Shown here: positions 45,711 through 49,421 of the stretch, piece by piece
How the letters are laid out: every line of letters begins with the position of its first letter
How positions within the stretch are numbered: the first letter of the stretch is position 1
Assembly (NCBI GenBank): GCA_963784875.1
Contig: CAWATE010000010.1
Location: 58,555 to 122,554, forward strand
Source: an uncultured Solirubrobacterales bacterium
Lineage (GTDB): Bacteria > Actinomycetota > Thermoleophilia > Solirubrobacterales > Solirubrobacteraceae
Direction of reading: 5' to 3'
Length of the DNA stretch: 64,000 bases
Made by a program: the position numbers and the translations under genes
The notes under the pieces: model-generated
What the model was told of the DNA's origin: nothing
Database searches by the model: none
Seen by the model: the letters and a program-made list of their open reading frames with translations, nothing else

Positions 45711-48700
45711 ATGGCGCTGACCGTTCGTCTGCTCATAGGTCTCGCTATAGCCTCGCTGATCGTCTACGCCACCACCCCCTACGCGATCAGCCTCGCCAAT
45801 CGCCTGCAGTTCTACGACAAGCCCATCGGCTATAAGGGCCATGCGCGCCCCACTCCGTATCTAGGCGGCGCTGCCCTCATGGTGGGCTTCGTCAGCGCGA
45901 TGATCCTGACCGCGGGCGACTGGCGCAAGACGGTGCCGCTGGTGGGTGGTGTGGCGCTCCTCTGGGCTGTCGGCACGATCGACGACCGGCGCACGGTCTC
46001 TCCCGTAATTCGTGTCGTCATCGAGGTCGCCCTGGCCGCGGTGATCTGGGCCTCAGGTCTGGGCTGGAACCTACACCTGGGCGGCGCTGTGGACCTCACG
46101 CTCACCTGCCTGTGGGTGCTCGCCGTCGTAAACGCCTTCAACCTCTTCGACAACATGGACGGCGCGGCCAGCACGATGGCGCTGGTCGTCTCCGCTGGAG
46201 CCGCGCTGATCGGAATTGTGCGGGGGGACGTCTGGCTGGCCGTCGGCGCGGTCTCCCTTGGCGGGGCTTGCCTGGGCTTCCTGCCCCGCAACCTGTCCGT
46301 GCCCGCGCGAATCTTTTTGGGCGATGGGGGAAGCATGCCATTGGGTTTTGCCACCGCGGTGCTGGTGATGGCCGCCGCGAGCACCTCCACGGTCGCGTGG
46401 CAGTCGCTACTGGTCGCCCTGCTGCTCGTCGGAATACCGGCCCTCGACACGAGTCTCGTGATCGTCTCCCGCCGGCGGCGGGGGGTATCGGTCCTCACGG
46501 GCGGCCGGGATCATCTGACTCATCGAACTCGAAGATTCCTACCCAGCGCGCGTGCCGTAGCGCTTTCTCTGGGTGCGATCCAAGCGGTGGTGTCTGTAGT
46601 GGCGGTGCTTGCGATCGAGGGCGGCACATCCTTCTTGGTGATCAGCGCGATCCTCTACCTGCTCGCCGCCGCCGGCGCGATCGTGCTGCTCGAGACGCAG
46701 GACGTCGAGGAGTTCGGAGTGGCGCCGCAGGGCGCTCTCGTTGCAAACGCCTCCAAAGGCCGCTCTCCGGCGGCAGACGGTGGCCTGCTCGTGCTCGGCT
46801 TAGGCGCTGGCTTGAGCCCGTTCTTCTTCGCCTACTACGACGCTTCGGCGTGGGTACCGATCGGGCTCGGTCTGGTAGCCGCGAGTGCTGTGGCGGTGGT
46901 GGCGCGCCCCGCGCGTCCCTCTGGTCCGGGCGCCCTCGCTCTCGGAAGTCTGCTTGGTCTCGGCGTTTGGTCTCTGATTTCCACCGCCTGGGCGGAATCG
47001 GTCGAGAACGCCGTCGTGAGCGGAAACCGCTGGCTCGCCTACGGGGCGCTGCTCGTGCTGCTGCTGGCGCTGCTACGCAGCGAACGCCGCTCGGCGCTGA
47101 TGCTCGGAGCGGCCGGGCTCGGGGTGGCGGCGGTGGCGATCTCCGTGCTCGCGCGATTGCTCGGCTCAGACCCGGGGACGCTCTTTCTCGGAGGCCGCCT
47201 GAACTCGCCCCTGGGATACATCAACGGCGAGGGATGCCTGTTCGTAATCGGCTTCTGGCTGTGCTTCGCCGCCGCCGAGGCCCGGCGCGCGCTGGTGGCG
47301 GGCCCGGCGGCCGGGATGGCCACCCTGATGGCCTGCCTGGCGATGCTGTCCCAGTCACGCGGGACCGCGCTGGCGATGCTCTTCGCGCTGGTGGCGGTGG
47401 TGGCCGTCGTCCCCGGCCGCACCCAGCGGGTCTACGGATTGCTGGTGGTGGCGGTCGGCATAGCGCTTGCCGCGCCCGATCTGCTGCGTGTCTATGAACA
47501 CTCCGCGGGCGGATCGGTATCCACGGAAGCCGGCCACGTCGCCGGCGGAGCAGCGTTGCTGGCTGCGATCGCCGCGGGCCTTGCCTGGGGACTGCTCACG
47601 CTTGTGTGGGAGATGGCTGTCTCCCCCCGCGCATTCAGCTCGCGGGTCACCAAGGCTGGATCATGGCTGCTTGCGATTCCGGTCGCGATCGTGCTCGTCG
47701 TGGCGGTCGGCTCGGCACAGCGGATCGATCGCGACGTTCGCAACCAGTGGCATGCCTTCACGAATCTCGCCGCGCCGAGTTCGAGCGCCACGGCGTCGAC
47801 GGCCAGCCAGTCGCGCCTGCTCTCCGGCGGCGGCAACCGCTATGACTACTGGCGAATCGCCTGGCGAGTCTGGCGCGAGAACCCGGTCCTCGGCGTCGGC
47901 GCGGGCAACTACCCGCGCTCCTACTACGAACAGCGGGCCACCACCGAGGACATTGACCAGCCCCACTCAATCGAGCTGCAGACCCTCTCCGAACTGGGGC
48001 TCGTCGGCGTCCTGCTGCTGGTCGGCTTCCTCGGCGGTGTGGGCTGGGGGATCGCTCGAATGCGCCCGGCGGCGCGGCGCTCGGGCCTATCGCGTGCGCT
48101 GATGGTGGGCTCCGTCGGCGCCTTCACCGCTTGGCTGGCACAGACGAGCGTCGACTGGATGCAGCTGCTCCCCGGTTTGACCGCGATCGCGCTCGTTGCC
48201 GTCGCCGTGCTCGTCAGACCGCGATATCAACAAGCGGAGAATGCCGTTCTGCGCCCCTCCCGCGCCGGTCGCGCGCTCGCCGGTCGGCCGGCGCTCGCGC
48301 TGGGCGCGTCCGCCGTGCTGGTGACCTTGGTGGTCGCCGGCGCGAGCCTCAGCCGCCAAGGTCTCGCCGACATCTACCGCACACGCGCCCAGCACGAGCT
48401 CGCCGCGAACCCCGCTGCCGCTGTCACCGACGCGAACCGCTCCCTGGACATCGACTCTGACAACGTCGAAACCTACTACGCCAAGGCGGCCGCGCTCGCG
48501 CACTTCGACCAGGCCGCCGGGGCTGAAACCGCGCTCCGGCACGCGCTTGCGCACGAGCCGAACAACTTCGTCACCTGGGCGTTGCTCGGGGACATCGCCG
48601 TGCGCGAGCGCCGGTTGCGGGTGGCCAGACGCGACTACACGCGCGCCCATCGGCTGAACCCACGCGACACCACGCTCGCGGAACTGTCACGCGACCCGGG

Positions 48701-48716
48701 CTCCGAGCTGCGCTGA
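45711..48716 (+). CDS. Fusion of WecA/TagO-like phosphoglycosyl transferase, O-antigen-ligase-like domain and TPR-like tail
   Basis: PTPYLGG, GTIDDRR, NAFNLFDNMDG, IFLGDGGS, DHLTHR; then SQSRG, RYDYWRIA...PVLGVGAGNY...PHSIELQTLSELGLVG; then helical repeats (ALAHEPNN). Confidence 0.88.
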   Translation: MALTVRLLIGLAIASLIVYATTPYAISLANRLQFYDKPIGYKGHARPTPYLGGAALMVGFVSAMILTAGDWRKTVPLVGGVALLWAVGTIDDRRTVSPVIRVVIEVALAAVIWASGLGWNLHLGGAVDLTLTCLWVLAVVNAFNLFDNMDGAASTMALVVSAGAALIGIVRGDVWLAVGAVSLGGACLGFLPRNLSVPARIFLGDGGSMPLGFATAVLVMAAASTSTVAWQSLLVALLLVGIPALDTSLVIVSRRRRGVSVLTGGRDHLTHRTRRFLPSARAVALSLGAIQAVVSVVAVLAIEGGTSFLVISAILYLLAAAGAIVLLETQDVEEFGVAPQGALVANASKGRSPAADGGLLVLGLGAGLSPFFFAYYDASAWVPIGLGLVAASAVAVVARPARPSGPGALALGSLLGLGVWSLISTAWAESVENAVVSGNRWLAYGALLVLLLALLRSERRSALMLGAAGLGVAAVAISVLARLLGSDPGTLFLGGRLNSPLGYINGEGCLFVIGFWLCFAAAEARRALVAGPAAGMATLMACLAMLSQSRGTALAMLFALVAVVAVVPGRTQRVYGLLVVAVGIALAAPDLLRVYEHSAGGSVSTEAGHVAGGAALLAAIAAGLAWGLLTLVWEMAVSPRAFSSRVTKAGSWLLAIPVAIVLVVAVGSAQRIDRDVRNQWHAFTNLAAPSSSATASTASQSRLLSGGGNRYDYWRIAWRVWRENPVLGVGAGNYPRSYYEQRATTEDIDQPHSIELQTLSELGLVGVLLLVGFLGGVGWGIARMRPAARRSGLSRALMVGSVGAFTAWLAQTSVDWMQLLPGLTAIALVAVAVLVRPRYQQAENAVLRPSRAGRALAGRPALALGASAVLVTLVVAGASLSRQGLADIYRTRAQHELAANPAAAVTDANRSLDIDSDNVETYYAKAAALAHFDQAAGAETALRHALAHEPNNFVTWALLGDIAVRERRLRVARRDYTRAHRLNPRDTTLAELSRDPGSELR

Positions 48717-48887
48717 GCCTGGATTGAAAGGTCTTCCAGTCGAGGCAGCGCCATCGGGCGAGATGTGAGCAAAGTCGACTTAAGAAAAGTGCGCTTTGCT
48801 AGACGCGCTGCGTGGGCTTGCCGCCAATCCGTCCACCGGCCTGCGATAGCGGCGAGTTGCGCCTGGAGAAGCTGTATCTTCCTCTTG

Positions 48888-49421
48888 GTGCGTGTCGTCA
48901 AATATGCGCCGGTTGTTGGAACCTTCGCCGTGCTCGCCCTAAGTTGCCTCGCCGTCTCGGTCCAGGCCGCCACCGGCCTGGAACCTGGGGTCCACGCCGA
49001 CCCCGGCTCGCCGGCGGCCAAGGAGTACGCGTTGCCGCTCAACCAAGCCAGACAGGCCGGCGAGCGTGCGGGCAGCCACGCAAGTTCGGGCTCTACCGCG
49101 CTGTTCGGCGCCGGTATCAAACCGCCCGGCTCGGGCGGGTCGAGCGGCTCGGGCGCGTCGGGACGGGCCGATGCGCGTGCGGGCGGCGCTCAGCCCTCCG
49201 CCCACCGCAACACCTCCGGCCCGGCCCCGTCGAACCAGGGCTCGTCCGTTCCCGCGATCATGCGCGCCGCGCGCTCCCAAGCCTCATCCAGCGGCAGCGG
49301 ATCGCTCCTGACGCTGTTAGGCGGCGGCGTCGCGATCCTCGTGCTCGGCGCGTTCGGCGGAACCGTCATGAGACGCAGCCGGCGTTCCTCGGCCCCGGCA
49401 CGACCGGCGAACTCGGCGTGA
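48888..49421 (+). CDS. Small exported Ser/Gly/Pro-rich protein with C-terminal TM anchor and basic tail
   Basis: TATCTT box 7 nt before the GTG; signal peptide ending VQA; DPGSPAAKEYALPL; SGGSSGSGASG; TM followed by RRSRR. Confidence 0.75.
   Translation: MRVVKYAPVVGTFAVLALSCLAVSVQAATGLEPGVHADPGSPAAKEYALPLNQARQAGERAGSHASSGSTALFGAGIKPPGSGGSSGSGASGRADARAGGAQPSAHRNTSGPAPSNQGSSVPAIMRAARSQASSSGSGSLLTLLGGGVAILVLGAFGGTVMRRSRRSSAPARPANSA

Follow-up and report, generated by a model that had tools for sequence, protein, structure and literature searches.

A bacterium described as a soil actinobacterium carries a starter transferase and a ligase-like enzyme joined in one polypeptide chain. Its gene sits in a Wzx-type polysaccharide cluster, and co-occurrence, adjacency, a natural fusion and a passed complex prediction support a functional tie between this enzyme and a small, exported, membrane-anchored protein encoded next to it. 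The Wzy_C-TPR part of the fusion may be a ligase resembling O-oligosaccharyltransferases that works, in a monoderm, on an anchored acceptor of its own, a reading to which we give an even chance of being right. The fusion gene and its parts occupy the following positions in the window (the whole stretch of DNA that was analysed, 64,000 nucleotides):

45711..48716, + strand: fusion protein gene (P0001), 1001 aa, stop codon included
45711..46697 (residues 1-329), + strand: polytopic phosphoglycosyl transferase of the WecA/MraY superfamily (PF00953, MraY fold)
46698..46766 (residues 330-352), + strand: cytoplasmic linker between the two membrane enzymes (low confidence)
46767..48284 (residues 353-858), + strand: WaaL-fold Wzy_C domain (PF04932, WaaL structure match)
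48285..48713 (residues 859-1001), + strand: extra TM helix (~859-880) and 3-repeat TPR (fold, profile)

An earlier sequence-only reading had described a single uninterrupted 1001-aa ORF uniting WecA-type, ligase-type and TPR parts, which is confirmed by the ORF itself, Pfam, the structural model and the folds. All three parts (residues 1-329, WecA/MraY-type phosphosugar transferase; 353-858, WaaL-fold Wzy_C domain; ~880-1001, three-repeat TPR) are backed by both structure comparison and the full-length AlphaFold2 model (pLDDT 78.3, pTM 0.80), in which linker residues 331-350 have pLDDT < 50. Predicted helices and loop charges give a consistent topology at the junction, from inside to inside.

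The transferase part is predicted to contain 11 TM helices, with the N-terminus outside and the C-terminus inside according to the model and loop charges. Its membership of the superfamily follows from a Glycos_transf_4 (PF00953) match over residues 77-221 (90.3 bits, cut-off 27), and its MraY/GPT fold from structure comparison with MraY 9zno_A (residues 1-304, Z 33.5, rmsd 2.2, 283 aligned) and DPAGT1 6bw5_D (Z 28.7). The cytoplasmic Asp/His motifs are invariant in 39 fusions (D91 D92, N141-N144, D147, D150, G151, F202-S208 including D205, D267, H271 and R272), and we take their catalytic roles to be those known from WecA and MraY. With WecA, TagO and WbpL, the domain shares Glycos_transf_4, the MraY/GPT fold and 11 TM helices, together with the conserved Asp-Asp, NxxNxxDxxDG, FxGDxGS and DHxxHR-type motifs; unlike WecA proper, it scores far below the cut-off of TIGR02380, the model for UDP-GlcNAc:Und-P GlcNAc-1-P transferase (95 bits, cut-off 326.05). 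The same genome also holds a separate stand-alone WecA-like gene and MraY, suggesting that the fused copy is pathway-specific.

The second part belongs to the Wzy_C family (PF04932; residues 614-771, 60.4 bits, cut-off 31.7) and has a WaaL-type fold, as residues 352-840 align with WaaL 7tpg_B (Z 18.2, rmsd 4.7, 380/403 aligned), and the sole Foldseek match of a second model at E <= 0.001 was WaaL 7TPG (E 3.5e-5). Its predicted TM helices number 14, and a large outer loop (668-753) closes with Q750-P-H752-S-x9-G763-x-x-G766. Invariant in the 39 fusions are R496, P500, Y503, N505, R550, R573, R702, R710, R742, E746, D747, Q750, H752, S753, D815 and W816. Among them, H752 (in an H-x10-G763 context), R702, R710 and R742 can be set beside R215, R288 and H338 of E. 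coli WaaL as a comparison of patterns only, and the full-length model has low confidence in the catalytic loop (pLDDT < 50 for 679-751). WaaL 7TPG, the best solved structure match, may have the H-x10-G pattern and conserved Arg residues in common with P0001 but shares only ~14% identity with it; P0001 adds the TM helix and TPR and, by our own count, has two more TM helices ahead of the big loop. Lipid A-core is not expected in actinobacteria. One His and two Arg are reported as essential in both the WaaL and PglL families (PMC3643930). The PglL_A and Wzy_C_2 domains are absent among the Pfam matches of P0001 at E <= 0.01, and the TfpM model NF058641 scores 27.9 bits against a cut-off of 600.

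The C-terminal part is a TPR domain by fold and family profile: residues 884-1001 match 3-repeat TPR proteins with Z 17-18.7 over 116-118 residues, and a profile of 77 relatives matches consensus TPR proteins at E 5.6e-60, while all three Pfam TPR models on residues 880-990 stay below their cut-offs (31.4 vs 42; 24.2 vs 24.4; 22.4 vs 27). The positive-inside rule assigns the Arg-rich loop 835-858 to the inside, and the TPR domain would then lie outside the membrane.

Conservation of the fusion, for which a domain-architecture check had been proposed, is borne out. Among the best 120 of 1059 homologs, both Pfam domains occur in 119 others of 863-1065 aa, all single-frame and sharing 62-92% identity, and the fusion is found in one open frame in 12/151 genomes of the order, from two families. 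The fused proteins form some 20 full-length clusters at 50% identity. The linker is crossed without gaps by contigs from two unrelated public runs (X1 record 5, 46589-46841; X20 record 17, 46456-46806). The earlier reading was to be refuted by separate genes in relatives together with a frameshift or stop in the linker, or by the domain acting as a Wzy polymerase with no protein glycosylation, a role considered below as a competitor. The public contigs pass through the linker without gaps. Most members of the same orthologous group are stand-alone Wzy_C-TPR proteins, and on the tree these are intermingled with the fused ones, implying at least seven changes, which indicates that the fused state is not essential. 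This interleaving, together with stop codons inside the fusion copies of two genomes (G008 and G081), is what could be cited for a recent or accidental read-through without function, or for an assembly or frameshift artefact of the MAG. Such an origin is very improbable, being already contradicted by the homologs, genomes, clusters and public contigs, and the inside-to-inside junction also argues against it.

Downstream of the fusion gene lies the small partner gene:

48875-48880, + strand: TATCTT, -10-like hexamer, ending 7 nt ahead of the start codon of the small gene
48888..49421, + strand: small partner gene (177 aa), product exported and membrane-anchored
within 48888..49421 (residues 1-26), + strand: signal peptide
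48990-49052 (residues 35-55), + strand: motif 1
49101-49127 (residues 72-80), + strand: motif 2
49305-49370 (residues 140-161), + strand: C-terminal TM helix, followed by an RRSRR tail

The listed ORF spans 48765..49421; however, orthologues and the TATCTT hexamer indicate that translation probably starts at GTG 48888 (or TTG 48885), giving 177 aa. A TAnnnT element stands at exactly -13 in 9/13 orthologues and at -14 in one more, a sequence pattern suggesting that the small gene has its own promoter and a leaderless mRNA. As judged from sequence features, the protein founds an unannotated family defined by a signal peptide, two motifs, a disordered linker, a TM helix and a basic tail. It contains the motif DPGSPAAKEYALPL named in the earlier reading; the family motifs read VDPxSPxxKEYxLPxxxAR and FGxG, and P42, E46, Y47, P50, R55, F73, G74 and G76 are invariant. 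Across 119 relatives, Tyr47 is present in all, and the residue before Pro42 is Ser in 113 and Ala in 6; in two genomes the Ser41 position holds Asp (G137) or Ala (G092). Between motif 2 and the TM helix extends a disordered A/G/S/P-rich linker, and the mature protein consists of 19% A, 17% G, 17% S and 8% P. The earlier description of the neighbour as exported, with a C-terminal TM helix and Arg tail, holds, and so does its Ser-richness in this genome, but the latter is not a conserved feature (linker S+T 8-33%, median 20%, across the 119 relatives). Conservation resides in the two short N-terminal motifs and not in a Ser-rich low-complexity tract.

The postulated tie between this gene and the fusion was upheld in a survey of 151 genomes of the order, 22 of which have a Wzy_C-TPR at 36% or higher identity to P0001. 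Of these 22, 17 were verified to carry the small-protein motif, as against none of the 129 others, and the small gene lies within 1.5 kb of the Wzy_C-TPR gene in 13 of the 17 genomes having both. The single-contig (complete) genome G009 encodes the two as one in-frame fusion (P0220), in which the small protein precedes the Wzy_C-TPR. At 20 other Wzy_C-TPR paralog loci, a comparable small neighbour occurs in only 3, with 0/20 in controls.

Complex prediction for the enzyme and the small protein gave ipSAE values of 0.83, 0.82 and 0.83, the best of three controls reaching 0.00; the runs share at least 51% of contacts, with partner pLDDT of at least 50. The pass mark is reached by 116/157 solved complexes and 2/215 mismatched pairs, rates that apply only roughly here as own alignments were used. 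The predicted interface involves partner residues 35-38, 40-51, 54-55, 57-60 and 72-80, so that the conserved motif singled out in the earlier reading coincides with the predicted contact surface. On the enzyme it involves residues 373-377, 493-506, 747-749 and 816-820 plus the TPR, with (near-)invariant contact columns at Y376, L501, G502, Y503, G506, D747, W816, Y923, A930, L958, D961 and R965. In the predicted pose, Ser41-Pro42 of the partner rests against invariant outer loops that neighbour the His752 loop, Ser41 being the partner residue predicted to come closest to the ligase loops; residues 747-749, but not His752, are among the confident contacts. These predictions support binding of the nearby-encoded partner by the enzyme.

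The surrounding cluster includes the following features:

30746..32032, - strand: secreted PslG-like (clan GH-A) glycoside hydrolase (profile match, recurrent in the module)
32209..45620, no single strand: rest of the glycan cluster (Pfam, NCBIfam)
32209-33090, + strand: epimerase (Pfam/NCBIfam)
33116-34321, - strand: GT4 (Pfam/NCBIfam)
34402..36000, + strand: polytopic membrane protein, possibly a GT-C-type glycosyltransferase
36052-38106, + strand: membrane protein
38176-39216, + strand: GT4 (Pfam/NCBIfam)
39216-41057, + strand: AsnB-type amidotransferase (Pfam/NCBIfam)
40946-42184, + strand: GT4 (Pfam/NCBIfam)
42162-43010, - strand: methyltransferase (Pfam/NCBIfam)
43117..45186, - strand: Wzx-type flippase (Polysacc_synt, PF01943, 56.8 bits, ORF residues 203-472)
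44670-45620, + strand: methyltransferase (Pfam/NCBIfam)
49456..50457, + strand: NAD-dependent sugar epimerase/dehydratase (SDR; Pfam, NCBIfam)

The flippase ORF is probably overlong, with an internal true start, because as listed it overlaps the methyltransferase gene at 44670-45620. SDR orthologues (65-71% identical) flank the fusion gene in 7/11 fetched fused loci. The hydrolase has no Pfam match; a profile of 9 homologs matches PslG 5bx9_A at E 5.8e-10, and its invariant E220 (WGEP) and E355 (SE) align with WNEP and TE of PslG, making it PslG-like. Homologs lie within 20 kb in 9/16 related loci. The 34402..36000 product has no Pfam or PDB sequence match; its ESM Atlas neighbours (0.98), annotated 'putative dolichyl-phosphate-mannose-protein mannosyltransferase' and falling in PMT_2/Glyco_transf_22 clusters, offer a lead only. 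Elsewhere, a homolog of it forms the N-terminal part of a fusion with a Wzy_C-TPR (P0225, read by eye). Among the cluster ORFs scanned, neither a second Wzy_C gene nor a PCP/Wzz or LCP protein was seen, and genome-wide there are about 8 Wzy_C genes, several of which lack a TPR.

In the proposed mechanism, undecaprenyl phosphate would receive the start of a glycan from the N-terminal WecA/MraY-type domain on the cytoplasmic side. Enzymes of the cluster (GT4 and GT2 transferases, methyltransferases, the amidotransferase) would build the glycan up and Wzx would flip it, whereupon the C-terminal WaaL-fold domain would transfer it from Und-PP at the outer face. The 26th TM helix of P0001 would put the TPR outside, where it could hold the small type-I membrane protein by binding the motifs Y47-R55 and F73-I77. 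Such docking would bring G40-S41-P42-A43 up against the ligase's invariant outer loops, close to the His752 loop, and the glycan would have in the small protein both its dedicated acceptor and its anchor in the membrane. Ser41 would most likely be the modified residue, with Tyr47 as an alternative, and one benefit of the fusion could be that scarce Und-P is kept within one pathway. We infer the topology, the direction of transfer, the acceptor status, the modified residue and the fusion benefit alike.

Domains, folds, conserved catalytic-type residues, the conserved fusion, genomic coupling and the passed binding prediction speak for the small protein as acceptor; a weak further argument is its own -10-like box, which would suit a protein required in greater numbers than the enzyme. 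Against this stand the variability of Ser41, the missing PglL_A and Wzy_C_2 domains, the low TfpM score, the position of His752 outside the confident contacts, the poorly modelled loop and the scarcity of small neighbours at other paralog loci. The in-frame fusion in G009, moreover, would tie an acceptor to its enzyme at 1:1, as would be more natural for a subunit than for a substrate that turns over. Appreciably less probable, though the strongest competitor, is a Wzy-type polymerase role in Wzx/Wzy-dependent exopolysaccharide synthesis, with the small protein as a TPR-held non-substrate subunit (e.g. a tether, a modulator of chain length or activity, or an adaptor for the PslG-like hydrolase) and the polymer released or attached by another enzyme. 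Pfam Wzy_C includes polymerases as well as ligases, and Wzx, several GTs and modifying enzymes are all encoded in the cluster; the recurrent hydrolase with both catalytic Glu conserved and the lack of another Wzy_C among the scanned cluster ORFs together fit polymerization into long chains. The natural fusions that join Wzy_C-TPR with WecA, with the small protein and with the GT-C-like protein resemble a multi-subunit assembly complex, and the binding prediction suits a subunit as well as a substrate. However, the only solved fold retrieved at E <= 0.001 is that of the ligase WaaL, several TPR-less Wzy_C genes elsewhere in the genome could encode polymerases, no PCP/Wzz or LCP accompanies the scanned cluster, and what the predicted pose places on the catalytic-face loops is an S-P segment rather than just a docking helix. 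No TPR-bearing Wzy is known to us. C-terminal TPRs have been reported for the O-OTases WsfB and PglL (PMC2943079).

It is unlikely that the domain ligates the glycan to something other than a protein (for instance a glycolipid, a lipoglycan anchor or a wall polymer), with the small protein as adaptor or regulator. The WaaL fold and motif would suit this reading, given the diverse acceptor chemistry of the domain family, as would the lack of strict Ser41 conservation; nevertheless, no candidate for a lipid-acceptor pathway was noticed in the conserved module, which instead retains the small protein, and the contacts predicted at the catalytic face are the most conserved residues of that protein.

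If the small protein is indeed an acceptor, its closest counterparts would lie among known O-OTase systems. For TfpO, TfpM, PglS and many PglL homologs, the gene of the cognate substrate is reported to adjoin that of the enzyme (21/31 in PMC3643930; also PMC12645811). TfpO/PilO, TfpM, PglS-ComP and PglL share with the present system a WaaL-like fold, Wzy_C and a gene adjoining a small exported acceptor, here a candidate one, and en bloc transfer from Und-PP, described there, is proposed here by analogy (PMC3643930, PMC12645811). In the pilin-specific enzymes, as predicted here, the site lies in a Pro-flanked Ser segment. PglL/PglS-class enzymes are described as carrying PglL_A and Wzy_C_2 beside Wzy_C (PMC12645811), unlike P0001, whose partner is not a pilin, whose host is a monoderm, which is fused to a PNPT and in which recognition appears, from the model, to proceed via TPR binding of two linear motifs. 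Psl-type Wzx/Wzy systems likewise combine a PslG-like secreted GH with a Wzy_C protein, a flippase and GT4 enzymes, but the present cluster has no PCP/OPX parts, possesses the TPR and small-partner module, and starts with a PNPT, whereas PslA, the Psl initiating enzyme, is a PHPT. For monoderms, en bloc O-glycosylation through a Wzy_C+TPR enzyme is already exemplified by WsfB of Paenibacillus alvei, likewise a Gram-positive Wzy_C protein with C-terminal TPR that ends a one-locus Und-PP-linked glycan pathway (PMC2943079). A fusion to the initiating enzyme is not described in that account, the phylum differs, and the likeness is one of architecture; WsfB modifies a large S-layer protein, and the candidate acceptor here is a 177-aa membrane-anchored and mostly disordered protein. 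In Geobacillus stearothermophilus, the TPR is reported on a separate small protein encoded next door (WsaB plus WsaA), and in the WsfB/WsaB systems a linkage to tyrosine is known, a residue that is invariant in the partner described here (PMC2943079).

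The open reading frame at 45711..48716 on the forward strand remains open for 1001 codons, and its product, P0001, gives the following Pfam matches.

Residues 77-221: Glycos_transf_4 (PF00953), 90.3 bits against a cut-off of 27
Residues 614-771: Wzy_C (PF04932), 60.4 bits against a cut-off of 31.7
Residues 880-990: TPR, weak matches

A homolog search of 5.8 billion proteins returned 1059 matches among the 8000 candidates scored, and the best 119 besides the query (863-1065 aa, 62-92% identity), with source names pointing to Solirubrobacteraceae, each carry both PF00953 and PF04932. 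Contigs from two unrelated public sequencing runs span the linker (nt 46698-46766) without a gap, one of them with an in-frame 3-nt insertion nearby. The proposal of the sequence-only reading that both enzymes reside in one protein is upheld by these homologs and contigs, and it is very improbable that the fusion is an artefact, even with internal stops in two of its copies (G008 and G081). The public runs carrying the region, none of which is listed as an RNA run, come from peat and soil metagenomes and contain only small shares of it (at most 0.18).

Across 151 genomes of the order, the fusion appears as a single match from residue 1 to about 1000 in 11, and G131 contains it as two matches inside a single 1083-aa open frame, while in G129 and G096 the WecA-like and Wzy_C-TPR genes are separate and lie about 20 kb apart. 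In a phylum-wide sample of 401 genomes, the full fusion occurs only in the family of the window (the home genome G000, G028, and G013), and other families have stand-alone Wzy_C-TPR proteins at 31-36% identity; both denominators include the unpublished-flagged genomes G036, G057, G151, and G168, none of which is positive. Among 1.84 billion representatives of 50%-identity clusters, 1197 match at E ≤ 1e-30, and of the top 150, some 20 are full-length fusions and over 100 are stand-alone Wzy_C-TPR proteins, about 650 aa long, which align with residues 350-1000 at 37-46% identity. On a FastTree phylogeny of the Wzy_C-TPR parts (39 fused rows, 76 unfused, and one fused to the small neighboring protein), the fused/unfused label changes at least seven times, six of these changes being forced by well-supported branches, although some of the "unfused" metagenomic representatives may be fragments. 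Fusion or fission has thus recurred, and the fusion is conserved but not obligatory.

The NCBIfam WecA model scores 95 bits on P0001 against a cut-off of 326, so the PNPT domain is best described as WecA-like and not as a certified WecA. An AlphaFold2 model of P0001, built from an alignment of 39 fusion proteins, reached a pLDDT of 78.3 and a pTM of 0.80. By structure comparison, residues 1-304 resemble MraY (9zno_A; Z 33.5, rmsd 2.2, 283 residues aligned) and human GPT (Z 28.7), residues 352-840 resemble the O-antigen ligase WaaL (7tpg_B; Z 18.2, rmsd 4.7, 380/403 aligned), and residues 884-1001 resemble three-repeat TPR domains of the peptide-binding type (Z 17-18.7). WaaL was also the sole Foldseek match at E ≤ 0.001 (3.5e-5) when a second, better model from a relative served as the query; a Wzy_C-TPR profile run against PDB sequences was dominated by TPR matches and gave no alignment with WaaL. 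Residues invariant in all 39 fusions include, in the PNPT part, D91, D92, N141-A-F-N144, D147, D150-G151, F202-L-G-D-G-G-S208, D267, H271, and R272; and, in the ligase part, R496, P500, Y503, N505, R550, R573, R702, R710, R742, E746, D747, Q750, H752, S753, G763, G766, D815, and W816. The segment H752-S-x9-G-x-x-G fits the H-x10-G motif form by pattern. In WaaL and PglL alike, according to Schulz et al. (PMC3643930), one His and two Arg are essential.

The P0001 model contains 26 long hydrophobic helices, whose orientation was fixed by placing the PNPT catalytic loops in the cytoplasm, where those of MraY and WecA are located. The PNPT part would then comprise 11 helices with its N-terminus outside and its C-terminus inside, followed by a cytoplasmic linker (330-352) and a Wzy_C part of 14 helices whose conserved loops 485-500 and 668-753 are predicted to lie outside. 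The Arg-rich loop 835-858 (5 K+R) would face inside, and helix 859-880 would bring the TPR domain outside to face the cell wall. With the helices so placed, the fusion junction is topologically coherent.

The next gene, whose start lies at about 48888 according to its orthologs, encodes a 177-aa protein.

48888..49421 (+): small anchored protein
48875-48880: TAnnnT hexamer, compared with the corresponding position in loci L025-L036

An alignment of 13 orthologs, from which the interrupted, truncated, or fused copies of G008, G081, G098, and G009 were omitted, revealed a common layout of signal peptide, two motifs, variable linker, Gly-rich TM helix, and basic tail. Motif 1, V-x-V-D-P-x-S-P-x-x-K-E-Y-x-[LI]-P-x-x-x-R, contains the invariant residues P42, E46, Y47, P50, and R55, and motif 2 is F73-G74-x-G76. 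A profile search identified 455 clusters at 90% identity among 8000 candidates scored. Among the 120 listed, motif 1 is present in 119, with Tyr in all 119 and the residue before Pro42 being S in 113 and A in 6, and FGxG likewise occurs in 119. The linker in these 120 has a median of 59 residues, with 50% A+G+P and 20% S+T (range 8-33%). The description of the neighbor as Ser-rich holds for this copy, whose linker is 26% Ser, but does not name a conserved property of the family. The named entries among the 120 are hypothetical save two with automatic names, "LPXTG cell wall anchor domain-containing protein" (P0312) and "cobalamin biosynthesis Mg chelatase CobN" (P0387); the LPXTG reading of P0312 was rejected, as the motif is absent from its sequence. 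No NCBIfam model matched the small protein, and the ESM Atlas yielded only "hypothetical" actinobacterial clusters. In 9 of 13 orthologs the TAnnnT hexamer lies at exactly -13 relative to the start codon of the small gene, and in one more at -14, which suggests a putative promoter of its own and a leaderless mRNA, apart from the upstream fusion gene.

Conservation of the neighboring gene, which had been proposed as a check, was borne out by its distribution. Wzy_C-TPR proteins at 36% identity or more to P0001 occur in 22 of the 151 genomes, and the small-protein motif was verified in 17 of these 22 versus none of the 129 others, where weaker matches lacked the motif. In 13 of the 17 genomes having both, the two genes lie within 1.5 kb of each other (G000, G068, G028, G137, G092, G098, G081, G083, G104, G119, G008, G009, and G129), and the distance is greater in G013 (3.7 kb), G110 (16 kb), G049 (20 kb), and G131 (about 90 kb). 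No verified small-protein match was obtained with this query in G132, G096, G141, G126, and G125. In the single-contig genome G009, a single frame encodes both as an 831-aa fusion (P0220), with the small protein N-terminal to Wzy_C-TPR; a search for fused small proteins among longer proteins found none, and since it also missed P0220, this negative is weak. In addition, in a 57%-complete MAG (L038, G081:C49, about 12017-12367), the TPR end leads in the same frame to the small-protein motif, without an intervening signal peptide; this copy has an internal TGA and a C-terminal part that looks frameshifted, and may be an assembly fault.

Two distant paralog pairs, in G019 and G131, retain a related small protein whose motif reads SPSGTxYQLPLDxAR. 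Besides the fusion, G000 has MraY, a separate WecA-like gene, and about eight Wzy_C genes, two more of them with TPR. Each of these two paralogs, located outside the window, adjoins a 197- or 223-aa ORF in which a signal peptide, a Gly/Ser-rich tract, and a C-terminal TM helix with a basic tail, but no KEY motif, could be read by eye.

C4:2856-5015: Wzy_C-TPR paralog, with neighbor at C4:5228-5821
C1:36064-~38500: Wzy_C-TPR paralog, with neighbor at C1:35418-36089

Criteria for a small anchored neighbor, written after this pattern had been seen, gave 7 candidates in 3.06 Mb, 2 of them adjoining Wzy_C-TPR genes. In other genomes they picked out 3 of 20 paralog loci versus 0 of 20 control loci, and the family HMM 2 of 20 versus 0 of 20, so a general rule that every Wzy_C-TPR paralog has such a neighbor is not supported. 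One of the three loci (L073, G064:C1, 1899-2291, minus strand) encodes a 130-aa exported protein ending in LPFTG, a TM helix, and a basic tail, which is a sortase-type substrate and no kin of the KEY-motif family.

Complex prediction with enzyme residues 350-1001 and small-protein residues 27-177, each from a separate alignment, gave ipSAE values of 0.83, 0.82, and 0.83 versus 0.00 in three controls, with at least 51% of contacts shared between runs and a partner pLDDT of at least 50; of 157 solved complexes 116 attain the tool's mark, as do 2 of 215 mismatched pairs, counts that apply only roughly here because custom alignments were used. To our knowledge this pair has no solved relative, which makes it unlikely that the score merely reflects memorized structures. 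The confident contacts of the partner (residues 35-38, 40-51, 54-55, 57-60, and 72-80) correspond to both conserved motifs. In the model, residues 49-55 and 73-77 sit on the TPR domain (927, 930, 954, 957, 958, 961, and 965), residues 41-45 sit on the outer loops of the ligase (373-377, 501-503, and 820), and further contacts fall on enzyme residues 747-749, three positions ahead of H752. Among the 39 fusions, many of the contacted enzyme residues are invariant or nearly so. The predicted complex supports binding between enzyme and partner, and it is quite probable that the two proteins bind, whatever the purpose. In an AlphaFold2 model of the natural fusion P0220, the enzyme part had a pLDDT of 82.3, and residues 3-58 and 64-137, for which the alignment had no rows, fell below 50 and were undocked.

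The glycan gene cluster around the fusion encodes two SDR epimerase/dehydratases, four GT4 glycosyltransferases, an AsnB-type amidotransferase, two methyltransferases, a Wzx flippase, two polytopic membrane proteins without a family match, and one secreted protein.

30746-32032 (-): secreted PslG-like hydrolase
34402-36000 (+): polytopic membrane protein, possibly GT-C-like
36052-38106: polytopic membrane protein

Neither of the polytopic proteins has a Pfam match at E ≤ 5, nor do the secreted hydrolase and the small protein, and a PDB sequence search returned nothing for either polytopic protein; the ESM Atlas offers a GT-C-like assignment of 34402-36000 as a lead only. A profile of nine homologs of the secreted protein matches PslG, the Psl hydrolase, at E 5.8e-10, and the two Glu positions of clan GH-A are invariant in it. 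Among 16 related loci of up to 20 kb, a PslG-like gene lies inside 9, and the remaining GTs differ from locus to locus. An SDR epimerase/dehydratase adjoins the fusion gene or the small gene in all 11 fused loci, being of the 49456 type in seven (65-71% identity) and of the 32209 type, together with the GT4 of 33116, in four. The listed ORFs 43117-45186 (-) and 44670-45620 (+) overlap by about 500 nt, and 39216-41057 and 40946-42184 by about 110 nt; the Wzx and GT4 genes probably start downstream of the positions listed. In the 1091-aa protein P0225, a homolog of 34402-36000 is, as read by eye, apparently fused N-terminal to Wzy_C-TPR, which would add a third natural type to the fusions of this ligase with WecA and with the small protein.

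Start-and-finish protein O-glycosylation with the neighbor as acceptor had been proposed for this system, and an O-OTase with the small protein as its dedicated acceptor has, in our judgment, about an even chance of being correct. This reading agrees with the enzyme's architecture, with a cognate partner encoded next to it, and with the predicted pose, in which an S-P segment rests at the catalytic face. Four points count against an acceptor: Ser41 varies, the G009 fusion is easier to reconcile with a subunit than with a substrate, the PslG-like hydrolase recurs in the module, and no second Wzy_C gene was found among the cluster ORFs scanned. Together they keep alive a polymerase with the small protein as a bound subunit, which we nevertheless regard as rather unlikely. 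A ligase acting on a non-protein acceptor is more improbable still, and the little probability left falls to something else.

Solirubrobacterales are monoderm actinobacteria without lipid A. Building on the acceptor reading, a wider scheme may tentatively be suggested, at well below even confidence, in which these bacteria anchor surface polysaccharide on a dedicated "protein core", forming a membrane-anchored proteoglycan much as LPS O-antigen is carried on lipid A-core. The core would be the small type-I membrane protein, whose N-terminal S-P/KEY peptide would be caught by the extracytoplasmic TPR domain of the WaaL-like ligase and which would then receive the whole Und-PP-built glycan. The repeated fusion of the ligase to an initiating transferase, an acceptor, or a GT-C enzyme would, under this protein-core scheme, reflect their operation as a single complex that retains Und-P within the pathway.

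Several features of the system have counterparts in described enzymes. According to PMC2943079, Wzy_C is accompanied by a C-terminal TPR in WsfB and PglL, whereas for WsaB the TPR is on a distinct protein encoded upstream, and Tyr is a possible linkage site of S-layer glycans. PMC3643930 reports that 21 of 31 PglL homologs adjoin pilin genes, and PMC12645811 places the substrates of TfpO, TfpM, and PglS nearby and treats PglL_A and Wzy_C_2 as marking the PglL and PglS classes only. Unlike these two classes, P0001 lacks both PglL_A and Wzy_C_2 in Pfam. Und-PP-dependent en bloc transfer by a WaaL-like enzyme is already known, monoderms included; the new elements are that an initiating PNPT is fused to it, that a family of small partners bears TPR-docking motifs, and the lineage. 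Literature searches, mostly outside subscription journals, found no article naming both "Glycos_transf_4" and "Wzy_C", none on "Solirubrobacter" with "O-antigen ligase", and no description of a PNPT-Wzy_C fusion. Fusion homologs go by the source name "O-antigen ligase family protein" or by [quoted passage not shown]; annotation of the gene thus exists, but its architecture and partner are, as far as could be found, undescribed.

With this fusion, the first and the last membrane step of a glycan pathway that depends on Und-P would for the first time be described on one polypeptide, an arrangement offering a natural handle on the channeling of scarce Und-P and on whether initiating and terminal enzymes act as a complex. 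The partner family delineated here, unannotated and comprising at least 455 clusters at 90% identity, has a predicted TPR binding mode and a candidate glycosylation site. WaaL/O-OTase-type chemistry is moreover extended to the Thermoleophilia, actinobacteria that abound in soil and whose envelopes have received little study. For glycoconjugate engineering, a portable tag system could be made of a short docking peptide and an enzyme that brings the matching acceptor-docking domain with it.

Further glycan genes occupy 54391-63773 of the window, past NrdJ (51082-53961) and CtaA (54391-55428).

55435-56067: RmlC
57262-58263: SDR
59198-60646: GT2
61983-62996 and 63102-63773: two methyltransferases

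Toward the other end, three giant ORFs lie on the minus strand at 3-3422 (at least 1140 aa), 8897-12748 (1283 aa), and 12748-17253 (1501 aa). Two of them match NHL-repeat and fn3/purple-acid-phosphatase-N-like domains, each downstream of a near-duplicate 353-356-aa ORF (3419-4489 (-) and 17250-18311 (-)) with TetR_N and MarR_2 matches, and the giant ORFs may represent large surface proteins and a duplicated module.
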